DNA of 64,000 nt from Chrysomallon squamiferum (Eukaryota > Animalia > Mollusca). Each line of letters opens with the position of its first letter. Positions within the stretch are counted from its first letter, which is position 1. Shown in pieces: positions 3,501 through 57,477 of this stretch. The DNA lies in contig CM022672.1 in NCBI GenBank assembly GCA_012295275.1, positions 26,598,001-26,662,000 on the forward strand, in the 5' to 3' direction. The notes below the pieces were generated by a model that made no database searches, had not been told where the DNA came from, and worked only from the letters and a program-made list of their open reading frames with translations. The position numbers and the translations under genes are program-made.

Positions 3501-4022
3501 CAGCAGTAAATGGAAATGATGTTGAAAACAATTTATTTTACTTGTTGCAGAGTTAAAAGGGTTTTTCAACCTCCCAGTGTGAGACGAAAATCAAACAAGA
3601 CAACCAGCACTTTGGAGTCTGATAACCTCACCAATAACGGAAATACGTCGACAATAGCGGACCCAGACGCCCTGGAGCTGAAAATGCTGCAAAATGGCGA
3701 GAACGTGCACAGCGAAAGCTTTCACAACGAAAGCAGATGTGCATCAAAATCTACAGTTGACAACCTAAGCCAAAGTTCGGCGGCGTCGTTGTCTTGTAAA
3801 GTGATAACGGTGAAGCCACAAATTAGCAGAGACGCAAGTGTCGGGTCACTGAAAAACTCCGAATCGAACGGTAAAATGTCTTCCAGTACGAAAAGTACAG
3901 CGTCACATTCAACGCGACCCGTTAGTAGCGTCAGCAGACAGAACAGTTCGGGAAAGATCGGAACTATTGTGGTTTCCGAAGTTCACCCGCAGCCAAACAT
4001 GGCTGATTGGGCAGATATTTAA
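198..4022 (+). CDS. 3' end (last two coding exons) of an unidentified protein; Ser/Thr-rich, probably disordered C-terminal tail
   Basis: Exon 198-230 (tttcag| ... |gtgagt, 33 nt, phase 2-2) splices in frame to terminal exon 3551-4022 (ttgcag|, stop TAA). The join reads GTEFESVFGSGVKRVFQPPSVRRKSNKTTSTLESD...VVSEVHPQPNMADWADI*. The terminal exon is clearly more GC-rich and more complex than its flanks. No domain was recognised; upstream exons lie outside the window. Confidence 0.75.
425..645. repeat. degenerate ~36-bp AT-rich minisatellite in an intron
   Basis: Recurring units such as aaaatcccatttttaagatactttaaatgcggtattg, aaaccctgttttaagatagttttaatatgctattat and aaaatgcctgttttaaaatagttaaatacggtttt. 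Confidence 0.5.
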
Positions 4023-12800: not shown

Positions 12801-15614
12801 ATTTAGTTGCCAGGCTGGAAGGATCACTGTCCAATGTTGAAGCTCTTCGTGATCTTCGAGCTGAGCTGATTTCAAGAAAAGAGGTAACACTTGTTGTGTC
12901 CTTCAGTTAGTTACAATATCGCTTAGTCCAATGTTTCTTTTTTCATTTTTTTTTTTAGGTTTGAGAAGTTTTAATTTAATTTTTTATTTTAAAATATTGT
13001 TTTTCAGAGATTACATGAAATTATCATTGAAGAACTAAATAGACAGATCTATGAGAAATCTATCCTACGCCTCAGTCTTCGCAGAGGTTCCCTTAAAAAA
13101 GCAGGTAAATATTAAACACTAAATTTCTTATGTGAGATCAGTATAGGTTTTTCAAATGCAAGACATCATTTAATTATTATTTTTATTCTAATTTTTAAAA
13201 ATCTTTTTAATTGATATGCCCTTTGTTTTGTTACTGAAAGATACGACTGAGCATAACAATTATTCTAAGCACATATATCCTCAGTTTCTTAATATGACAA
13301 TACATGTTTCTTAACTCTGCTAAAGACACATTATTATTGTTCATTTAATTAAATAACCCATTCAGTTTCCTTTCTTCTCCTTTTAAGATGTCTCATATTT
13401 TGGCATCTATGAATTGCACCGGAACATCCAAAATAATCAGTATTGGCTAAAATAGTGTTTATTGCTGTTGAAATGTAAAGGTATTAGTGGTTCATGATTT
13501 GGTAAAAAAGCTTTATTTCAAAGTAAATCTGTATTGTAATATATTTTACAGGTATTAACTTTGGCCGAGACAGTCCAACATCTTTGTTTGACGATGACAC
13601 TGACATTGATGTGAAGGAAGTGAAAGAAGAGATTAATGTTAATCCTGAAGAGAACCATCCTAATTTCATTGCAGTCCTTATTGAGTCCCTTTCAGCTCTT
13701 AAGAAATTACCTGATGCTGTGGAGGTATTATTCCTGTATGGATGCATGGATGGGTGGATGGAGTATGGATAACTTCTTGAAAGAATGATAATGGATGGGG
13801 TTGGATAAATGTATCAGATAAAAGAATACATTTTAAAGGATGGTTAGAATGTTAGAATAAAGAGATGGGTTTTATATTAAAATGCATGAACTAATGCAGA
13901 GAGAAAAAGAATAAAAGAATATATGTTTAACAGAACCACAGCATTTGTTTTTAAATTACAGCTTTTAGGTATCAGTTTTACTGATACCTTCTGAAATATG
14001 AAACAAATTACCACACCTATTCTTACCTGTTTGAAGTAAGGAATCTTTTATGAGTGTTCTGAAATACTAGAAAACTTATTTGTGGAGGATATGTTGAATT
14101 CAAGCCAAATGGCAACCTATTTTATCTCAGAATAGATATTTAACATGTTAGCAGTTTGATAAATATTTTTTGTTTTGAAGTAAAAATTTATAATTTGCTG
14201 ATTTATTTCAGACTAATATTTAACTAAGATTCATTATGGGAAATGAAAATCTTTTTTCAAATATAAATATTAATACCCAGTTTTAATTCTAAATCTTATT
14301 TATTTATTTTATAGGCTGTGAAGATGAAAATTCATCCAGAACTGCTTTCCCTTGTTGCAAAATCATCACTTCAGATAGTTGATAGGTAAGTCATAACTTC
14401 AGTTTGTATAATCCTTAAGTATTACTTATTTGAATATGTCTTTAACTCTCTTGAATGAAGTTATTCTACTCACTAGCCATTTCTTTAACCACTGAAATCC
14501 AGAACTACTTGAATATTATTTTCAGAAATAAAATTATCAAACAAGATTTTTTAAATGTGGTCATTGTGTTATGTTACTAACTGTATGTCAAAATACTCAG
14601 TCTCTACTACTGTTGATTTTTAAATGCCATAACACCAAAAAACAATAATTCTTGAATTTTTTTTAAGGATTTTATTTTGTTTTCTTAATAAGAAAACATG
14701 TAGAAATTTGAGAAACGTACCCCTACCCACCCAGAGAAACTTTAATAACATATTTATTTTCCATTAACTCTATTACTGCTTGGTATTACTGTATTTCTCT
14801 GTTTCAGTGCTGGAGAAAACCTGGCCATTCATAACCAGCCTCGTTATCTTCTTGAATTGTTAGAGATCATTTTCCAGCAGTTTAGAAATGTGGCCTCAAT
14901 GCATGCACTTGTATTGAGAAATGTGCACAGAGCAATGGTGAGTTTACTTATTGCTGTAATGCATTTTAATAATTAGAATAAAGTTATTATTTTAATAAAC
15001 AGTAACTTGAGGGGGATCATTGCTTGATAAACATAGCATTTATTTGGCATCCTATGTTAAAGTTTTAACTTTGGTGAGATAGATAAACTGTACAATTATC
15101 TGTTTCTGATTTAAGCATTTAAAAATATTAATTCAGAATTCATAATTTTGTAGCAAGATTGTCATTTTGTTTTTCTCATGATAGAAAAAAAAAGTTTAAA
15201 TATTTAATCAAAGTTAAATAATTTTTTAAAACAATTTTTATTGATAGATGCAGTTTTAATGCTTTAGGATGGGGTTTTATTTATTGTTTCTTCCTCTCTC
15301 CCTTTTTAAATTAAAAATTATATTGATACCACATTCTATTTCATTTTTTTTTATATGTATTAGTTTTATTATAGAATGAGTTTTCTTTTTAAAAAAATCT
15401 AAAAACATTGTTATTATTGTCTTTCGAATTTTTTCTTTTTTTCTTTTCTTTATGTATAGATTTTTATTATAGAATTATTTTGATTTTGATATATCCAAAA
15501 TTTGCCCTATTTTTAATGGTGGTGAATAGACTTTCATTTATTTATTTAAAAAAAATATATTAATATAATTATTATTTTATTTTTTATTATTATTACTATT
15601 ACTATTACTATTAC

Positions 15615-32421: not shown

Positions 32422-34083
32422 CACATAATATACATTTCTTCTCTCTTTAAAAAAAAAGAAGTAATTTATTTAGAAAATGACTAATATCTGATAATTGGTG
32501 TAAGTATGTTTAAGAGTTCTGTGAGCCGTCGGTACTTGACAATTGCAATCAGTAGAAGGGTGAACGAACTTTAAACTCATCAAATAAAGCGAAAACAGCA
32601 AGTACTTCCTTCTCTTTCTTTCGAAACTGGCATTGGGTAAAGGTTACGAGGTCTTGGGTACAAAAACAGCATAGGTGGAAACAAAAGTAATAAAGAGAAG
32701 AAAAGAAAGAAAGAAAGAAAGATGGAAAAAAACCCAGTAAAAGTTTGCGAACAAATATCAGTACAGTTTCTTAACCATTAAGAAGTAACAAAGAGAAATG
32801 GCTGATTGTTAACTCAAAAACATATCACGATTATGCCCCTTTGATGACGCAGACCCAAACACGTGCATTCTATTTGCCTTTTTGAAAATGACTTGTTTAT
32901 GCTCGTGCTGATTTTTTTTTTTTTTTTTTTTTTTTGTTGTTGCAAAATTAATTTAGACTGAATTAAATAAATAAAAAAGGGAAATTAACAAACATTTATC
33001 AGCGAGTTATTTTTTTTATTTTTTTTTTTTTGCCATATGGCATTTCTGACGTCATAGCTGTCATTTTCAATAAAAGCCTGTAAAAATGTCAACCTTTATC
33101 TTCTCTGAGATTACGTCGCAGTACGAAACTGGAGCACATGACCTTTCAAAAATAATAATAATAAATACATAAATAATTATACACAAAAACAAGATATCAA
33201 GATATAAATACTGAACCAAGTTTTATGCTTCAACAAGTACAATGTTTTATCGCCTAAGATTTCTAGCAACCAGTTGTAATCCTTTGCAACATTTACTGCA
33301 CAACCGGCTGAGGCAAAACAATATGTCAGGGGCGGATTATGGGGTGTTTCCAAATTGCACAGATCCGTCCAGCTAAAATAATAATAATAATAATAATAAT
33401 AAAAATAATAAAAAATAATAAATAAATTTGATGCCTAGACGTGTATACCCACTACGAATGATTTTCGAGCTAAACTGGATGTCAGCTTGAAAGTTTGGAT
33501 TGCTGATGCGACGGGAAGCAACGGCGGAAAGAGAGCTACAACAAGTTGTACAGCTACCAGGCTTCGTGAACACCGGCTTTAGAAGTGTGTACATTTGTAT
33601 CTTTTAAATATAGTTTTTGTCTACACTTTTCATTGTTTATTTTATAGTTTAGATATAGATTATGCCTCGATCTAGAAATCCGGAATGTTCGGAAATTAGG
33701 GTCACCTTCGGATCCATGTTTGCCGGATAAATAATTTAGTATACCTGTACCGTGAGTTTATGCTGTATTCTTGCCCTATTCCGAACTGAACCCATCACCT
33801 TTACTTAAACTGCTATTGTTTTACTACTTTATTATCTTCACTTCTGTAGCTGTTTCCACTTCCTAAACTACTATTTCTATCATTAATCATGCTGGGTCGG
33901 ATTATGCTTTAAGTTATGCGAGGGTCCCGAAGCAATGTATGCGAAATTGTTGTTTATGGAAGCAAAATTAATTACAGCAGCCCGATATTTCAACCAGTAG
34001 CTTTAGTATCAGCAGAAGTTAAAGCACGAGTGATCGGACAAGAAGTAATCCCGTTAAGAAAAATAATTTTGTTTCTTTGTTTC

Positions 34084-39863: not shown

Positions 39864-39985
39864 ATACATCCATGATGCAGACGACACAATCTTGTTTACA
39901 TTAACCCGGCGGAACGCGCGTGTCTAAGTAACACCGACGTTACTACCTTACAAACCTTACAAACTGGTAGATTTTGAACTGGGTT

Positions 39986-41131
39986 ATGACATTTTTATTC
40001 GTAATGGATTACACGAAATTAATTTTCCTAATTTTTCTCACGCTCTGCATGGTGGACGGCCGGGGTAGAAGACGATCAAAACGAGGAAACGGAAAGTGCA
40101 ACGAGTATTCTTTCGCCGAGTACAACCTGACTTTCTACGGGGACTGGTCAAAAGAACGTTTCCCGCGGATGTACCCCAGATACAGACCCAAAGCTCAGTG
40201 GTCTCAGCTCATAGGTATAATTACATTTTTCTTCATTTCTTTCTCTTACGATTTTAGTATTTAAAATGCAGCTGAAACTGAAAAATACGTTAAATATTAT
40301 ACGGATAATTAAATATATATATTTTTTTTATTATTTTTTTCTTGACTTCAGTAGTCGCTATAACCTTTTCGATGCACTATGTATAATTTTGTAGCTCAGT
40401 GGCTAACATGCATGTCTTATATTGATAAACTGCATTGTCTTTCCTTTTTGTTTTAACTGCTAGCATGGTCGTAAAAGTCAGTCCTCCACATATAGTTGTT
40501 AAAAAGCTATTTTATTTTAGAATATTTTATTTCATTTTCATTATTTAATATTATTTTGCAATATAGCCTATATCTATAAACTACGTGTCACACGCTGAAT
40601 AATAAAGTATCGTTTAAAAATATTACATTCGGCAACAATACGATTAATTAAATCCCTATATTATACATGTATTTGATAACCTATTATTACACATCTAGTT
40701 CTGACAAATAAAGATACCGGATCGACTAGAAACGCGTAATACTGAGAAATTATGACGTAAGTGAGATTGTGGAATTGTGTTATCTGGTGTATTAGAATTA
40801 CGTAGTCTATGCTATTTTTATAGTTAAATTTGAATATGTGGTCCTTTAGATAGGAAAATATCTATTACCTCCAGATAAATCATTATTCTTCTTGTTTGTT
40901 TTTGTTTGTTTATTTTATTTATTTATTTATTTATTTAATTATTTATTTTAACTTTATTTATATTACTTGTTTATCTTGCTTACCCTTATGATATGATAAT
41001 ATTTATAAAATTTATATTTTCATAAATATTTGTCTCTCAGCATCTTAACAGCCTGTGTCTCTCGAGCATCTTAACAGCCTGTGTCTTTAGCGCATCCTAG
41101 GATCAGTTTATATATATATATATATATTATA

Positions 41132-41175
<44 letters not shown>

Positions 41176-42260
41176 TTAAATAAATGTTGAGACTATAAAT
41201 CAAGTACCGCCTCTGTTTTAATGAACACACTATCACTACCTAGCAAGCATGCTTTCAGCTTTTATATGTCCATAACTTACGTACTTGGGGTTTCTTGCAG
41301 ACTTAATTGGGGTTTCATGAGAGAGATACGCTTTTCACAACAAAAAATAAAAAATAAAAAGACGAAGAAGAAGAACAAGCGAAAAAGAAACCAAGAAAAT
41401 GCATGATATTGAATGCAAGGTCTTCGTGAGGGTTGTGGGAGTTTTCTCGTGGTACTCATTCACCCAGTTCGATGGTTATTCAAAGTAGACTAATTGTGCA
41501 AGGGCTACTGACATAGACTTCACTGGCCACTATAACCTTTCTGAAACACTATGTATATTGACTTATTCCTAATTCAAAGAAAAAATCTACATTCGTATGC
41601 ATATCATTTACGAATGAATCATCTGTTGCTAAAATTGTAACTCTTTTCTCGTAGTTTTAGTTGTGAATGTACCATCTACAAATACTCTACTCTGATGAGA
41701 CACATACATCAATACAAACGTGCGTACGCACACACATATCCATGCACGCAGTCGTACAAATACATACAAACGTACGTACGTACATCTACATACACATTAT
41801 ACATACATACATACAAATCTACACATACACACACACAAACACACACAGATACACAGACACATAAACATTTACATATACATATACACATACACATATATAC
41901 GTATACAGATACATATATACACATACACATATATACATATACACATACACATATACATATCCTTGAACTTTTGTAATGTAGTTTGATCAAACATTTATTC
42001 TGGTAAACTGCATGGCTCAGTGTAAAGGTCGATGGGTGATAAACATGAGCCCGGCAAGCGAATGTTAACAAATTCCGAACTTCCGAAGTCATCCGAAGAC
42101 AATACTAAAACGGATACAGCACATGCAGACACCAGCACACCTTGATACCAAATGTTGTATAACTCAGCGCGTACCTTTCGTACTGAATTTTGCGCAAACC
42201 ACCAATTATACTAAAACGAAACCTTAACTGGAAGCCGTTCAGTGCTTCTTGAGAGATACG

Positions 42261-42356
<96 letters not shown>

Positions 42357-45043
42357 AATAGCTTGTCTGCAATCGGTTAGATCTCTCATCAGTTTGTGAT
42401 GATCTATAAGCATATGTATATAGCCATAAAACTATAGCTTTGTGTGTTGTTTTTAAAAACAAAAACAAAAAAAGCATTTGTTCTTTCTAAATCATAGATT
42501 TCGATACACAATAACATAGTAACATACCACATGACTTATGATATGATCTAAAAGCATAACCTTTTCTAACTTTAGAAGTGTACGTGTGTTCACAAATGTT
42601 TTTATAAACGTGGGATACGCCTTGGACACGATTGTTTTGTGAAAAAAACTCTTTGCTCTTTTAATAAGCTAAAACAATAAGAGCTACAATATTGAGAATT
42701 AATTTCTTTTACCGGAATGTCACACTACACCCAAAATTGAAAAATAAACTGTCGAATTTTATTTATAGAAATCAGCGTTCCCAGTTCTTTTCCGTTTATT
42801 TCACATTTCTTGTTTATTCATAACAGACTGAATATAAATAAAGCAACAACCGCACACAAAATGGTCACGACTGCAGGAAATTGCTACATATGGGATATAT
42901 ATTTATTATGTTCATAATCCACTAGTAATACTACCATATGACCTAATGTATAAATAAATACGAATATCTGTGGGATTATACAGTTTAGTTATATAATCTA
43001 TGTATACTGTTAGTATTTTATTGATGTCAGTATATACCAATCAGTTTATGCCTTTCATTATGTCTGAAATTAAAGCATCCTTCGATCTTTTGTCCTAACT
43101 GTTCAAAGAACTGTGTGTCTTCGAAGCTTGTATCAGGCTTTTTGCTTATAACTTACGTTTTCTCTGAATACTCCTTCAATTTTCATTATGTATATATTTC
43201 ATTCGCTTGAGACGCTAATACACTAAAACACACAAGCACACTGAATATGTCAATAGTTCCTGGCAATAATTAAATATAAATCAACGGCAATGACATCTTA
43301 AAAGGCATTTGTGGAAGAAATAGTGACTGAACGCTGCACGTTATTTATGTAACACTTTAGAAATAATTTCAGTTTATTACGAAAGTTCAGATCTAGGTGA
43401 TTTTAGTCGTGCGGTTACACAGGCAAATTGAACGCATAAACAAATGAAGATGCGACATTGCATCGTCTCATCAGTACTGTAATTACAAACTGAAACAAGA
43501 GTGTGAAAGTTCTGTTATTCATTTCCTTAGTGTTAAGAGTGGAAGACTTCTTATAGTTTTCATTGCATTAAAGTGGAAGTTCTTTTATTGTTTTGATCGC
43601 ACATTTGATCATTTTCAGTGCATTTCTCGTACAGTATCATTGTATTTACTTTTGGTTATTAGTTCTTTTTTTTTTTTTTGTCTATTTATGAAATGGATAA
43701 TTTTATTTATTATTATTTTTTTATTATTATTATTTTTTTTTTATACAAGGCAGTAACATTATATTTGCACATTATTTATTTGAGTCTGAAACCCGGTTAT
43801 TAGTTCTTTCTTTTTTTTGTCTATTTATGAAATGGATAATTTTATTTATTATTATTTTTTTATTATTATTATTTTTTTTTTATACAAGGCAGTAACATTA
43901 TATTTGCACATTATTTATTTGAGTCTGAAACCCGGTAAGTTAACCATAAGAATACCCGCAATACAGACTGCAATACAGACTAATTTTTCGAAATGAGACA
44001 GGTCACCAGGCAAACTATGAATACTCTTCATTGTGCAGTTCGCATAAAAGGTGGACCCACACGAATCATGGCTCCTCTTTGACTCAATTATCACAGAGGG
44101 TTTCTATGTGATTATTGTCACAGGACCCACCAGCTTGCTGTTTTATGTAATAAGATGGTGGAGATCTCAAGACGTCCGTGTTCAAACTGAGAGTGGATAC
44201 GAGAAAGTGAAGATCAAACAGAAGAAATGCATGCTCACGACAGAACGTGTTTACACTTGTAGCCAGCCGCCAGATACCGCAAAGGTCTTACTCGGAAACA
44301 CGTAAAATGTCAGTTTCCGCAGCGATTTAGACGATAAATTGCTTTCACATTGGGCTTAAAAAGAAGTAACTTATTCTACAAAATGAACAACAAATGTTTC
44401 TTTTAGTTAGGAACACCTGTCGTCTGGAGAATATACCTACCTGTCCTTTGTAAACCTAGAAAAAGATGGCTTTAATAGTACTGCTACAGTTACGCGGTTA
44501 ATATTTATTATATATATTAATACATTTACAAAACAAATGTTTGTTTTTTTTTTTTTGGAGGGGGTTTCTGACCCAATCTTCCTACAACCTAGATATATTT
44601 ATATGACGTATATGCATTTCTTAATCTTATAGATATAGATATAGTTCTGTGGTTAGAGTAGCAGGGTCAGAGCTCTTCTGCGCTTGCAATACGTCAGTTG
44701 TTCATCTTCGTAATCGAGTATCATCTTCACTGATTTAAAACAAGTCAAGATAAAAGATAGCAGACGACTACGTTATTATGCAAATCATTAAACAGAAGTT
44801 TAAAATGTAAATTTTAGAATGAAAAGTTTTTTCCTTATACATCTGGTAGCTGAAAGCATAAGCACATTTGCCCATGCATAGAAAAAGTAATCTGAATTGT
44901 ATGCCTATTTGTGTTTTAATCTGCTGTGATGGATTCGATACCAAATCCTGCTAGTTTGATAACAAACAACTTAATCAGAGCACAACTGAGGCTGGTATTT
45001 CAAATAAAAATAAAAATGAACGGTATACTACTACTACTACTAC

Positions 45044-45074
<31 letters not shown>

Positions 45075-47804
45075 TTTTTATTATTATTATTAGGTCGGAC
45101 TCACGGACGGACGTACCACATGTGGTCTGAAGGGCAGCATGCATCGTTCGCGCTCCAGAAGTTTGTAGAAGAAAGGAATACCATGCTGTTCGAAAGAGAG
45201 GCGCAAGGATACAACGATACCCGGGACATTTTCACTGCCGCACCAATCACAGGAGGTGTAGGAAGAACGTCTCTCAGAATATTTGCAGACGGCACACATT
45301 CCAAAGTAATTAGCTCTAGCTAACCAATGACAAAATCATTAAATTAAAATTGAACTGTGTTTGTTAAAAAAAGAAAAAAGCCATATGAACAATTCATTTA
45401 ACAATATATCTTCTATTAACATAACTACCACTTCTCATACTAGTAGTAGTAGTGCTGCTACTATTACTGTACTACTAACATGACTATATTATTATACTAC
45501 TACTACTACTATTACTACTTTTGCTGCTATTGTTGCTGATAATACTACTAAATAATATCGCAGGATCACGTCATTATTATCTTTATCATTATCGTAATAA
45601 AATTGTTGAAAACTCTGTTTATATTTGGTTTATCATCTTCATCGAATTCTTCTTTTTCGTCATCATCAGTAGTAGTAGTTTGGAAGCAGTAGGAATGCAT
45701 TGTTAACATCCAAAAAAGGTTGTCTTGCGTTACTTAATATTTACTAAGATTATTTATATTATTTCATAAAATATCGGTATTTCTACTTCTTCTTTTTCAA
45801 GCTTTCATTCGTCGTAAAGCTGATACCCAGTCCAGACTGGTTCGTTGGCGTGGACAGTCTTGATCTTTGTAAAAACGGACACTGGCGACGAAAGATCTAC
45901 GCTCATTTGCGACCAATGGACGCCGGAACAGACAGAGGATTCACCTATACGTCTCCAAACTGGCCTGCATATCCGAGAGAAAAAATATTTCAGATAACTC
46001 CGAGATTCCCTAATCACCCGGCGAGTTCTTTTTATGACGAGACAGCTGAAAGAGTGCCAAGGATTGCGCATGCTATAATAGAAAAAGTGGTGGAATATCG
46101 AAGGAAAGGGAATCCTAGTATGGGACTGGACTCGAGTCCAAATGTTGTCGTTTATGAACAAGAACACGAACGCCAAGAACGTCTTCGATTAATGACAAAA
46201 CCAACTGTTGCAGGGACAACAAATAATGTGGGTCCTGATTACTTGACGAAATACAATTCTGCTGAACAGCAACGCAGCCTGCAGATGCGACCTATAACCA
46301 GTTCAAATGCGTTATTAATGGGAAGACTAACGTCAACTTACAACGGACATCAGACGGATAGCAAATCATCAGCCAGTTCGTCATCTGTCTTGAGAAGACA
46401 ATCGATATTCAAAAATACTTTGTTTGATTCGCCTGCACATTTATCTTTAATGCCAACAACAGATGCCGGGAATCAAATATCAGAGAAGACAGAGAAAAAC
46501 AATATTATAACACAGAAAACTGTAGATTCAAGTTCCTTGGAAATACCAGATCCAGAACCAACTTCAGAAGGTGCTGAAATCATGTTATCAGAAACGTCAC
46601 TTCCGGTTAAAGGTGTCTCACAGGAACTAAACAGTCTAGATCTTGACGATGAAGATGTAAACAGAATCAAACCTAAACTGGTTCTTCAGAAAGATTTCAT
46701 TATGTCAACTGGAGATGATCAAGAAAAACATTTGTTGGACATATCGCAAACCGAAGTGTATTCTAACTCTAAGCAGCAGAGACTGCCTGATATCAGAGAT
46801 TACAGAAACCCAACAGACGTTCACGTAACCACTGCCTTGCAGCCCGAAATCGTCCCAACCCTTTCCACTACGGAAACCGATGAAAACGAACGGACGATCT
46901 ACAGCGAAGCTTATCGCACAGACTATATAGAAAGCTTTGCCAATCGCGATAAAATGGATTCCTTATTTGGAATTCTAAGCGATACGCCATCTAAAGAGTC
47001 TGATCTGACAGAAACTAAAACAACGGACGACGAGAAAAAAGCTGAACCTACAGAGAGTCTTGCTACAGACACTCAGCTTTACGTGGAAGAAGACTCAAAT
47101 CAGAAAGAATTACACGTGATTCCTCTTCATACGGCAAGCAGGGATAACACTCGAGGAGACGACAGTGAGAAAGGAAATGAACTGGAATTCAGAGACAACC
47201 ATGATGAGTTTAAAGGTGATAACACTCTCAACAGTGAAATGACAACGAATCAAGGAGCACGATTCCATAACAATTTATATGAAGGTCGGTCTACGAATCC
47301 CATCATTCGTTCTTTCTTCCTTTTCTTTGTTTCGTTCTTTTTTTCTTTTTTTTTCTTCAGTTTATTGAGAGAATATTGAAAGTAATACTGAATTCAAAAT
47401 ATTTTACTCTTTTAAGATTATCATCATTTTTCTTGAGTTCTAATTTATTCAACTATGGGTTTAATCCACAATTACTAAAATTTCATAAGTTTACCACTTG
47501 CTTGCAGCATTTATACATTTATTCTTAATTTATTCTAGAAAACATGAAAGACCTTGACTGCATTGTCGGCGAATGGTCTGACTGGAGCCCTTGCAGCAAA
47601 ACCTGTGGGTTTGGGGTGAAAAAGAGGTCAAGGCCGGTGACACAGTATGCACAGAATGGCGGTCTTCCTTGCCCGAGACTGGATCAAGAAGCTTTGTGTG
47701 GCAGCATGCGAAACTGCCGCTGGAACTATTTCAGTAATATTTTTTCCACTGATGCTAAACGACGACGTCGACGAAGGAAACGACGGCATCATCAGCACGG
47801 TTGA
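39986..47804 (+). CDS. spondin-2/mindin (M-spondin)-like secreted matrix protein: signal peptide, Spondin_N, long low-complexity linker, TSP1, basic tail; ~729 aa
   Basis: Exons 39986-40214, 45094-45305, 45802-47284, 47539-47804 (intron phases 1, 0, 1; sum 2190 nt; alternative start ATG 40004). Spondin_N hallmarks: YNLTFYGDWSKERFPRMYPRYRPKAQWSQLIGRTH, KLIPSPDWFVGVDSLDLC, PMDAGTDRGFTYTSPN, FPNHPASSFY. TSP1 repeat: DCIVGEWSDWSPCSKTCGFGVKKRSR...GGLPCP. No reeler domain, so it is mindin-like rather than F-spondin. Confidence 0.93.
41031..41098. repeat. ~26-bp tandem repeat, about 2.5 copies
   Basis: tgtctctc(g)agcatcttaacagcctg is repeated. Confidence 0.8.
41700..41960. repeat. compound (CA)/(TACA)/(TA) low-complexity microsatellite
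   Basis: Direct reading; it explains the HIHT/THTY ORFs. Similar tracts lie at 37680-37830 and 62820-63025. Confidence 0.9.
42264..42354. repeat. (GA)n microsatellite
   Basis: Direct reading. Confidence 0.95.
43654..43936 (+). repeat. near-perfect ~141-bp tandem duplication in spondin intron 1
   Basis: ggttattagttc...gagtctgaaaccc occurs at 43654-43794 and again from 43795; the copies differ only in a poly-T tract. Confidence 0.92.
44922..44996 (-). mobile_element. possible decayed tRNA-derived SINE head
   Basis: The reverse complement ccagcctcagttgtgctctgattaag...ggtatcgaatccc has A-box-like and B-box-like elements at tRNA spacing but no intact cloverleaf. A similar decayed head may lie at ~36225-36290 (-). 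Confidence 0.35.
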
Positions 47805-53055: not shown

Positions 53056-53480
53056 GTTTCTGACACCAAGCTATAGTATACGCAGATTACATGACATCAA
53101 GATGGGTGAAGCTACCGGACAATTATTCAGTATAGTCTAGCCTAAGGACGGCCTAACGAGCAATGTCTTCTTGTATCCATACAAGTGAATCCTAACTGTA
53201 AGTTCACACCAATGAAGCACTGAGCAGTTATCCACAGCAAGCATGCTTGGACATCAGTAATATCTGTCTTTCTTTCAAACCAAAATGTGTACGTGACTCC
53301 ATGTCATGATTTTGGTAAATATATTTAGATCAGTTTTATCTTATCTTGTTTCTTGCTGCCCAAAGATATATAAATTCATATTTCACCTTAGAATCATTTT
53401 TAGTTTAAAGTTGACACACAATATTTAGCTCAACTATTAACGATCAAAGAATCGGTAAATATGATGACATTTCTTTATTT

Positions 53481-53538
<58 letters not shown>

Positions 53539-54008
53539 TAATAATGATAATGATGATGAATATTATTATTATGATGATAATGATGATGACGGCAATAATC
53601 ACAATGATGATTGTGATGATGGTGATAACACCTGTTTTGAATTATCGACAGTGGATAAATTAAAACAAATTACTAATTTTTAATTAATACTTAGGATAAA
53701 AATGTATCTTTAAAACTCAGTTTGAAATTTAAAGAAAAAAAATGAGTATTTATTATTGACTGATCTGATACTGAGATTGAAGAATATAAATGAATTTATT
53801 GATTTTGATACTTCATTAATATACTTCATTTTATTTAATCATTCATTATATTTATTTATTTATTTATTTATTTATTTTAACTGTCCTACTTTAAAGACAA
53901 ATTCTTTTTACTATAAATACCATCATCGTCATCATTTTCGAAATAATCATTATCATATCCTTCATTTTAAAATACCACAATTATAATTATTATCAATTAC
54001 AGGTAAAA

Positions 54009-55866
54009 ATGGCTAATTCTGCTCTCTGTGGACTTCTGGTTGTCTTGATAATTGGCAGTTGTACTGGATGTAAGTTTTAGAAATCTTCACTCGAACTAAG
54101 ATGTATTTTTTATTATTATGATTTTGTGTTGGGAATAATGGTAATGGTTGCTGATAGCTGAATGGGTGTTATTACTGATTCGCATTTGGGAATTGCTGTT
54201 GATGAGTGCATGAGAATTATCGTTGATACTTGTACATAAAAGTTGCTACTGATTCGTGTACCTAGGACTGAAGTATGCATTAAGCTAAATAAGCATGTGC
54301 TTAGCGCATCAACAAAAGGGAGCACCACAGATATTTTCAGTTCCTGGATTTACTACGGACCATATGGTTCAAAATGTTGCAGCTTCACCAGATTCCATAA
54401 AAAGGAAATAAACACACACACAAATAATTAATAATAATAATACAATAATACAATATAATAATAATAATAATGGTTATACAAATAATTAAAAATAATAATA
54501 ATAAAATAGTAATTATAGGGGTTAATGATATACATACATCTTGCATTTACCATAAAGTTGGAATAAATTACAATGTAATGAGGCATCAAAATATTTTGAA
54601 TACTTAGGTCTTCTGAAGACGTTAATCCGGCCCTATCTGCTCTGTAGTTAGTGTTGTAGGTACGTGGACTGAGAGGGTGTGTTTTTTTGTTTTTTAATTC
54701 CTGTGTTGTAGTTTTAGGTGACTCAGAATTACATACGTTACTAGAAAAATACTCTTTATCACATATTCCACGTACCCGACCCTCAAAAGCCGATGAAGTT
54801 TATCATTATAATCTTGACAATGATTTCAACGACAACAGTTTGCAGTAGTCTCAATCTATTGTTGCAGTCAACGCCGACGAACGACGTCATGAGAAACGGT
54901 TCTTCCTGCACAGCATCGCGAAGGGGATGAAGGACATGATAACGGGCATGGCGAGCGGGGCAGCTGGAATGATGAGCGGGGCCGCACATGGCATGGACGG
55001 CGTGCTTGAAGCCGTCACAGGAAAATGCGTTCTTTGCGACAAAAACAAAGACGTACCCTTAATGTTTAACTTCGACGGTAATACGTTCAATTCTTACGAC
55101 CGTTTGGTATTTTATTGTTTGTATAATGTCAGCAGCGGTGAAATTGTTCAGAGCCGTATAACAAGCGTCAAGATTTTAATTTTATATTTTTATTTATCAA
55201 TACGTCTGTTAGTGAGTAATGTTTTTCTTTTTGGTCATCTTGAATTTCATAATCTAAATGCAAGTAAAAAAAAAACAAAAAAAAACATCAGTTACAATAA
55301 AAAAAAAAAAAAAAATAAAAGACAGTTAATAACACAACCTAAACCAATAAACAAGCTCAAAAAGAAACAAACAACATCGATGAATCAACCAGTATGTCTC
55401 GTTATTTATTTATTTATTGCAGGCCTTCAGAACTTGAATCATCAAAAAGCCACACGTAAGTACTTAACTGTTGAGATAAGAAATATTTGAAAGAAATATT
55501 TCTTAACACTTGCAAGTTATTTAATTTTGAAATAATAATAATAATAATAATAATAATGAATTTAAGAGATCTTTCTGGTTTATTTACTTTAATTTCATTT
55601 TTTCTAAATGTGAGGGTAAATATATTATAAATAAAACTTGTCTAGTATGATTTACTCTGTTAACTAATATACGCATTTGTAGAGGAAAAAATACAGCGCT
55701 TGTCAACACTCCTAAAAGATAAACTTTGTACACATTATTAAGCATCGACACAAGCTATCCAACAGTTCTGAGTTGTTTGTTTGTTTACTCTTTTGACTTT
55801 TCCGTGACATTAATTTTACAAGTTTTATGTTTTACTGCTGGTACTACTACCGTTACGACCATTAGG

Positions 55867-55923
<57 letters not shown>

Positions 55924-56412
55924 GTAGTACTACTACGACTACTACCATCACTATTTTTTTTCCATTACTACTACTGTTACTCCCACTACTGCTATTGTTT
56001 CTTCTACTACTACTACTGCTGCTGCTGCTGTACTGATAATAATAATAATAATCTCAACAATAATAACAATAACAACAACAACAACAACAATAATAATACA
56101 TGTACGAATCTATTTTCAGCTAAACCTGCTGCACCGGTTGCCGCCAAAACAGGTATATCATTTTAATCATCATCATCATCATCGCCACCACCACTAGCAC
56201 AGCCAATATCATCATTACCATAATCATCGTCATCAATCACCATCAGAATCATCATTGTCGCCATAATCATCATCAATATATCCATCATCATCATCGTAAT
56301 CATCAATCACCATCATGACCATCATCATCATCATAACCATCATTATCGCCATAATTATCATCATCATCTTTATTGCCTTCATCGTCGTCATTATCATTAA
56401 ATATATATAAAA

Positions 56413-56479
<67 letters not shown>

Positions 56480-56576
56480 GATAGATATAAAATGGTACAT
56501 AATTACGGGAACCAGTATATGCTATTTTATGTCGGCAAGTAAATGTATATTATATCCGCGTTTGTGTTTTGTTTCT

Positions 56577-56616
<40 letters not shown>

Positions 56617-56810
56617 AATTTTAAAAGACGATTTTCGTAAAAAAAAAAAAAAAAAATATTTATTTTATTTATTTTATTAAATTTTATTATATTTTTTCAG
56701 AATGTATGGACAGACCAGGAATTGACTGCAGTATCATGATTTCCTCAGTTCAGATCTGCAAACAGCCAATTGCTTCAAAATACTGTCCAAAAACATGCAA
56801 ATTCTGCTAA
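54009..56810 (+). CDS. small secreted ShKT-domain precursor protein, 148 aa (signal peptide, propeptide ending KR, amphipathic Gly/Met helix, CxxC, linker, ShKT)
   Basis: Exons 54009-54069, 54868-55077, 55423-55455, 56120-56152, 56701-56810; all GT-AG, all introns phase 1, sum 447 nt. Translation: MANSALCGLLVVLIIGSCTGFNADERRHEKRFFLHSIAKGMKDMITGMASGAAGMMSGAAHGMDGVLEAVTGKCVLCDKNKDVPLMFNFDGLQNLNHQKATPKPAAPVAAKTECMDRPGIDCSIMISSVQICKQPIASKYCPKTCKFC*. The last exon has the six-Cys ShKT pattern CxD...C...C...CxKTCxxC. An acceptor at 54001-54002 implies an upstream non-coding exon (candidate ending 52064, cag|gtaaag). Confidence 0.88.
56413..56486. repeat. (AGAT)n tetranucleotide microsatellite
   Basis: Direct reading. 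Confidence 0.95.
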
Positions 56811-57477
56811 TAAATATGAGTTAAACAACTAGTGATATTATATTATATATAAGATTAACAAATAGAAAGACAGTTGATGGACATGCATATTTAAGCACAG
56901 AGAGAGAGAGAGAGAGAGAGAGAATAATAAATGAATCAATCAGTATACATATTTACGAAGAAGTTATATCTAGGAAAGTAAATAAAATAAATATTTTAAG
57001 TATTTCGTCTTAAGGAGGTTAGACCACACCTTTGCAGATTATAACAGAAATCCAAACAATCGAATTATTGTAAACACTTCAGTTTTTGTAGCACTTATAC
57101 TCAAAAACAGTTGATTATTCAAACAACACTCATCCAGACATAAGTCCTGATGAAAAGCCTATTTCATGTTAAGTCCTGGCTCGGACAATAAATCAAGCAA
57201 GAAATGTCTCTGACAACCGTGCTTGGATGGTTCATAATGGAAGCTTGCCAAAAATGTACCCACTCCCACTTACCTGAAAGAAGTACATAGATATGGAAAC
57301 AGTACCCAATTTCTAAAGATATAATTTCTATGTTCATTCTCGTTTGATTATTATTATTTTTTTTTTTTCACAGTTACTCTAATTATCGGCAGTTGCTGCA
57401 TTGTTTGGGTTATGAAGTGGATTCTGCTTTGTATACTTTCCGTGTGATGGCTAATAAACTGGAAATCAATCTTTATT

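Follow-up and report, generated by a model that had tools for sequence, protein, structure and literature searches.

What kind of secreted protein is encoded by a small split gene on the forward strand of the window (the whole 64,000-nucleotide stretch of DNA analysed here), and what might it do? The sequence-only reading of this locus proposed a 148-residue protein spliced from five small exons, in which a helix released at a Lys-Arg (KR) site is joined to an ShKT domain. RNA contigs show that the gene is expressed and spliced, and its exons agree with this proposal: five coding exons of 447 nt in total, encoding 148 amino acids and a stop codon without internal stop, are found in order and without gaps in one 505-nt contig of RNA run X1 and one 475-nt contig of X2, which extend 3' to position 56823. 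Because the RNA contigs carry all five exons in order, the gene model survives the transcript test on which it hinged, the joining of 54868-55077 to 56701-56810, which is seen in both X1 and X2. Introns 1 to 4 are each of the GT..AG type and of phase 1. Three exon joints are tabulated, and the joint between exons 4 and 5 follows from the coordinates of the gapless record, where CAG fits on either side. The RNA runs compared were X1, X2 and X4, all from one study, with support coming from two of the three. The five exons are without cover in X4, and in run X3 (kind not recorded) intron sequence is covered without any exon joint. The X1 and X2 libraries are labelled 'metatranscriptomic', and their contigs bear no tissue labels. 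Contig depth, which is a poor measure, is low (7.8 in X1 and 4.9 in X2). All four coding differences in the runs are third-position and synonymous, one of them lying in the codon for the KR arginine.

The original gene model holds for the coding exons and lacked a 5' non-coding exon, the 3' part of which is placed at 53424..53454. This exon is traced by 30 loose letters in a single X1 contig, which equal 53424-53453, and its end is set at 53454 since these letters are matched and a GT follows at 53455; the intron that separates it from the first coding exon runs from this GT to the AG at 54001-54002. A candidate TATA box, TATATAAA, is read from the sequence at 53367-53374 (+) and may serve the non-coding exon as a promoter element. 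A second motif, TATAAATA at 53912-53919 (+), is located inside the 5' intron, 90 nt 5' of the ATG, and could be an alternative promoter. At the other end of the gene, two candidate AATAAA polyadenylation signals are found in the sequence at 56926 and 56981 (56926..56986).

Coding exon 1 (54003..54069, ATG at 54009), covered by the RNA contigs, encodes a 20-residue hydrophobic stretch that, judged by eye, resembles a signal peptide. The start of exon 2 (54868..54899) encodes a short charged stretch with two dibasic pairs, ending in Lys-Arg, which is the predicted propeptide. Dibasic pairs are confined to this propeptide, with none in the helix, CxxC, linker and ShKT parts when the exons are read singly, and we infer that the precursor is cut at KR by a prohormone-convertase-type enzyme. 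No exon contains a downstream dibasic pair from which a short peptide could be freed, monobasic cuts being possible. The amphipathic segment, the middle of exon 2 (54900..55025), is followed at the exon's end by CxxC and 13 more residues (55026..55077), a possible small beta-sheet. Exons 3 (55423..55455) and 4 (56120..56152), both taken from the RNA contigs, are 33-nt linker exons, the latter rich in Pro, Ala and Lys. The order of CxxC and Pro/Ala/Lys linker is thus as proposed, with the part between them about 22 residues longer than had been sketched. Introns 3 and 4 are crowded with TAC, AAC, CAT, GATA and GT microsatellites (55860-56620), and the 33-nt exon amid these is still spliced in both RNA contigs. 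Exon 5 (56701..56810) encodes the six-Cys ShKT domain and the stop codon.

The 42 residues after KR comprise 8 Gly, 7 Ala, 6 Met and 2 His, with a basic start and an acidic end. Their net charge is 0, in line with the caveat raised earlier that the helix is nearly neutral; the first 22 residues carry +1, and a charge of +1 is reached in just the first three of nine 18-residue windows. The hydrophobic positions listed in the sequence-only reading are correct on the exon 2 translation, and the hydrophobic moment of mature residues 1-42 peaks at 97-98 degrees. This moment is equalled by 2 of 20000 shuffles on the Fauchere-Pliska scale and by 27 of 20000 on the Eisenberg scale, for a stretch that was picked after looking. 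The self-similarity of the segment peaks at lags 7 and 11. The one-sided hydrophobic pattern of the 42-residue segment is non-random. In the AlphaFold model of exon 2 made without an alignment (overall pLDDT 65), a helix extends through mature residue 21 (pLDDT 71-83), followed by disorder at residues 22-30 and then three strands round the CxxC (pLDDT ~60). Since the model helix ends at residue 21, an unbroken helix of 39 residues is not borne out, and of the proposed one-faced helix to position 39 the periodicity stands while the predicted helix covers just its first half. These first ~21 mature residues have a Phe-Phe start, a net charge of +1 and one His.

Peptides processed at KR in frog skin and fish, of the temporin, brevinin, plasticin and piscidin types, combine a cut at a basic pair with Phe and an amphipathic, Gly-rich cationic helix, and scorpine joins a helix to a Cys-rich domain. 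The helices of all these are cationic, whereas the snail segment has a net charge of 0; the likeness is one of pattern only, and no sequence similarity to frog, fish or scorpine helical peptides was found in the Pfam, HMMER and PDB searches. Compared with linear cationic alpha-helical antimicrobial peptides, the segment has the amphipathic pattern after a basic site but not the clear positive charge, and by its charge the protein is not a classical cationic helical peptide.

Exon 5 matches the Pfam family ShK (PF01549) over profile positions 2-37 of 37 with an E-value of 8.7e-6 and 26.6 bits (cut-off 20.9), which bears out the claim of a complete six-Cys ShKT domain, and it matches no other Pfam family at E up to 1. 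The Cys residues are found at positions 1, 9, 19, 28, 32 and 35 (spacing 7-9-8-3-2), ending in CxxxCxxC, and the exon has a net charge of +3. By profile match and Cys spacing, the protein belongs to the ShKT superfamily. As to the ShK fold, with its C1-C6, C2-C4 and C3-C5 bonds, a single-sequence model of the ShKT exon alone is of low confidence (pLDDT 47.8), and a comparison with PDB sequences gave one weak match (E 0.6). With sea anemone ShK the domain shares the six-Cys pattern, but the distance from Cys3 to Cys5 is 13 against 15, and the snail protein has a long N-terminal extension. In ShK, the Lys22-Tyr23 dyad sits between Cys17 and Cys32 (PMC6917819; PMC6409789). The equivalent position (Cys3+5/+6 = Cys5-10/-9) holds Ala-Ser or Pro-Ile here, and the Lys-Tyr pair that is present sits at Cys5-6/-5, directly before Cys4. 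These residue positions confirm the earlier caveat that the pair is off the dyad position, and judged by the dyad the protein is not a type 1 anemone K+ channel toxin (ShK/BgK).

Relatives were sought in protein, PDB and fold searches with single exons as queries, which lowers the sensitivity. A word-indexed search of 5.8 billion proteins with exon 2 gave two candidates, none at E up to 0.1 (proteins of 117-373 aa), and the same type of search with the ShKT exon frame gave no candidates among proteins of 73-2000 aa, a result of little weight. HMMER search of 1.84 billion representatives with exon 2 returned four matches. Three of these (P0029, P0030 and P0032) are repeat proteins of 967-1675 aa, two with a SPOR domain, and were rejected as their scores are summed over repeats. 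The fourth, P0031 (JGI/IMG), is a 173-aa fragment made of three 57-residue repeats, each with a basic pair, Phe-Phe and then an acidic Gly/Ala amphipathic stretch. It resembles a protease-processed repeat precursor, and its 'MlaD' label seems automatic and is doubtful. P0031 and exon 2 agree at 27-30% in alignment, with a score that no full shuffle and 7 pattern-keeping shuffles equalled, out of 2000 of each kind. It was rejected as a homologue and is regarded as a look-alike, because such shuffle results are insufficient for the best match out of 1.8 billion. In metagenome contigs, 365 pattern matches yielded none that was confirmed. Both PDB matches of exon 2 are repeat entries (Ika8 and Ika4), of which no single stretch passes alone, and they were discarded. 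Exon 2 matches no Pfam family, and its model found no match in Foldseek at E up to 0.001 and none at a Z of 5 or more in VIA-align (best Z 3.5). The separate search for paralogues of the helix and ShKT parts that had been suggested was run within the 64-kb window, where tblastn, blastn and a Cys-pattern scan all found none. Taken together, no orthologue or paralogue was found with single-exon queries in the searched proteins, metagenome contigs, PDB and window, nor, in keeping with the sequence-only reading, any match to a characterised family. Because proteins of Gigantopelta aegis were within the searched collection, the gene would be either lineage-restricted, fast-evolving or unannotated in that species.

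The window is AT-rich (GC 0.22-0.40 in 2-kb bins) with many microsatellites. Upstream of the gene, Pfam and protein comparison identify a four-exon spondin gene (39986-47795, +; Spondin_N and TSP1 exons at 39971-47801). Its best named relative is that of G. aegis (89% identity over the searched region), followed by Haliotis rubra (71%). By exon, the three conserved exons are 86-88% identical between the snail and G. aegis, and the long exon 46%. These values make a peltospirid vent snail distinct from G. aegis the likely host. The third spondin exon bears a low-complexity insert of ~400 residues; long relatives occur in G. aegis (764 aa) and Haliotis (740 aa), whereas spondin-2 proteins elsewhere are mostly ~380 aa long. 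Two open frames, at 3510-4022 (+) and 13484-13813, have a protein-like composition (Ser-rich, 170 aa, and ~80-110 aa, respectively) and no Pfam match, and are probably exons of a gene in the first part of the window. A Pfam Bee_toxin match at 32473-32643 (-), found in 1 of 70 frames with an E-value of 8.5e-4 and 19.5 bits against a cut-off of 25, is likely due to chance.

Among known systems, scorpine had been offered as a parallel, but of the two, big defensins are the closer molluscan analogue. Big defensins of horseshoe crab, bivalves and lancelet have a signal and a propeptide with a basic cleavage site. The N-terminal domain of big defensins is hydrophobic, weakly basic and helical in lipid, and the two domains lie on separate exons (PMC10608444); the likeness would thus consist in a hydrophobic, weakly charged, lipid-helical N-terminal part and a three-disulfide C-terminal domain, each on its own exon. 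However, the C-terminal domain of the snail protein is ShKT instead of beta-defensin, and an extra CxxC segment and a flexible linker of two exons are present; judged by its C-terminal domain the protein is not a big defensin. The cnidarian peptides aurelin, damicornin, AmAMP1 and digitiferin are secreted, as is predicted for the snail protein, and have a cationic domain of the ShKT fold, but the mature peptides of these antimicrobials, as far as the consulted accounts describe them, are 40-81 residues long and consist of ShKT only, whereas the snail ShKT is preceded by ~80 residues with the amphipathic segment and CxxC. The gastropod Cumia reticulata has CreShKL proteins with a signal peptide, a Pro-rich low-complexity spacer and a single ShKT in which the dyad is mostly absent (PMC6409789). 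These precursors of 64-99 aa form an expanded venom family with a spacer of 8-30 residues, and are not described as having an amphipathic module or CxxC (PMC6409789). In the snail protein the distance from signal to ShKT is ~90 residues, and by its spacer it is not a Cumia-type ShKL.

By analogy, a defence-peptide role is plausible, and we tentatively favour a secreted, KR-activated defence protein of big-defensin-like build in which ShKT replaces the beta-defensin, a reading that may well be right while falling somewhat short of probable. The 148-residue precursor would be secreted with removal of the signal peptide, and a prohormone-convertase-type enzyme would cut after KR to free the Phe-Phe start. 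The first ~21 mature residues may then fold up on contact with a lipid surface and so hold the protein there. The cationic ShKT (+3) would remain tethered via the 20-odd-residue linker, since no further dibasic site follows KR, and could bind to negatively charged cell surfaces or to a surface protein, by analogy with dyad-less aurelin on anionic lipid. Helix and ShKT would act together in the manner of big defensins, with the CxxC forming its own disulfide or linking dimers, and the target would be microbes at the body surface or in symbiont-bearing tissue. For a defence role speak the four synonymous variants out of four, the expression in X1 and X2, the one-sided hydrophobic pattern, the confinement of dibasic pairs to the propeptide and the bacterial symbionts of the host's relatives, and for the big-defensin-like build the location of helix and ShKT on separate phase-1 exons. 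Against it stand the neutral segment, the model helix that reaches only residue 21, the single copy in the 64-kb window and the low depth; helical antimicrobial peptides of the classical kind have a clear positive charge, and invertebrate defence peptides often occur as families. Coral ShKT peptides are antibacterial and secreted into mucus (PMC12496222), and aurelin binds anionic vesicles without a dyad (PMC10608444).

It also counts against a defence role that ShKT is widely used as an accessory module outside defence, mollusc digestive proteases being one case (PMC6409789; PMC5549309). Such use is in line with a secreted lipid-binding or self-assembling matrix protein of mucus, egg or sperm coat, periostracum or scale matrix, in which the neutral, 11-residue-periodic Gly/Ala/Met segment would coat lipid or pack against itself after loss of the propeptide, with ShKT as a docking accessory. 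The net charge of 0, the 97-98 degree period and the self-similarity at lags 7 and 11 fit such a protein. Comparable features are shown by the 11-mer lipid-surface helices of perilipin or apolipoproteins, and Gly/Met-rich matrix proteins occur in molluscs. However, no ShK term or motif occurs in the searchable supplements of the scaly-foot shell and sclerite proteome, the annotation of which may omit the domain name, and a short segment beginning exactly at KR with Phe-Phe is a peptide-precursor pattern, so that a matrix role is possible but on the doubtful side. The protein could instead be the precursor of a neuropeptide, hormone or pheromone, with a KR-freed ligand for one of the snail's own receptors or channels. 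Its single copy in the window and purely synonymous variation point that way. Neuropeptides are usually conserved, though, and the single-exon searches found no relative in other molluscs; with no second dibasic site for freeing a short peptide, a signalling role is unlikely. In its favour, Nematostella has ShK-like neuropeptides, and AmAMP1 may be a neuropeptide too (PMC12496222).

The likely vent habitat of the host brings in a metal- or redox-buffering secreted protein, whose Met, His and CxxC would bind soft metals or scavenge oxidants. The CxxC and the content of the 42-residue segment in Met (6) and His (2) accord with this, but the Met residues occupy hydrophobic-face positions and are accounted for by the helix pattern without metal binding, making this role very unlikely. 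The probability is also very small for a venom or anti-predator toxin in which ShKT blocks potassium channels and the helix lyses cells, in spite of the ShKT domain and the toxin-like precursor layout. As a probable peltospirid that grazes or lives with symbionts, the host would not be a venomous neogastropod, and peltospirid vent snails are not known to be venomous. Neither gene expansion in the window nor amino-acid variation is seen, unlike in a diversifying toxin family, and the dyad-equivalent positions hold Ala-Ser or Pro-Ile. The missing dyad alone does not exclude channel block, because gastropod venom ShK-like peptides with Pro-rich spacers mostly do without it (PMC6409789). A venom role is unlikely overall; of the two-module defence or venom effector first proposed, the layout of signal, propeptide, amphipathic segment, CxxC, linker and ShKT is upheld, while its venom half is weakened.

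A narrower form of the defence reading is a lineage-restricted, two-module host peptide that holds or controls the bacterial symbionts of a chemosymbiotic vent snail, in effect a 'ShKT big defensin' arrived at by convergence, its near-neutral helix adapted for binding and not for lysis. Legume nodule cysteine-rich peptides offer a comparison of role. Peltospirid relatives of the host keep sulfur-oxidising bacteria in the oesophageal gland (PMC7142155; PMC7895826), but this form is distinctly improbable, and no literature linking ShKT, symbionts and bacteriocytes was found. If true, the literature searched would contain no earlier effector that joins an amphipathic helix to ShKT, and no earlier named host control peptide of a vent gastropod.

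Very little is known about the small secreted ShKT proteins of molluscs; in 2019, single-domain ones were reported from the vampire snail only (PMC6409789). In the literature searched, with subscription journals largely outside, neither this gene nor a precursor that pairs an amphipathic helix with ShKT was found to be described, and the searchable supplements of vent-snail papers (PMC7895826, PMC11871041, PMC7142155) have no ShK-domain entry by term, with an unnamed listing being possible. The architecture is therefore apparently undescribed. With a confirmed transcript and a predicted KR-released amphipathic module before ShKT, on separate phase-1 exons, the gene suggests that exon shuffling may have led to a big-defensin-like design on a different scaffold. 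If inactive on bacteria, the protein would be another orphan secreted ShKT protein. If active, it would provide a short, synthesisable candidate for the control of surface microbes or symbionts by vent snails, and a scaffold relevant to salt-tolerant antimicrobials.
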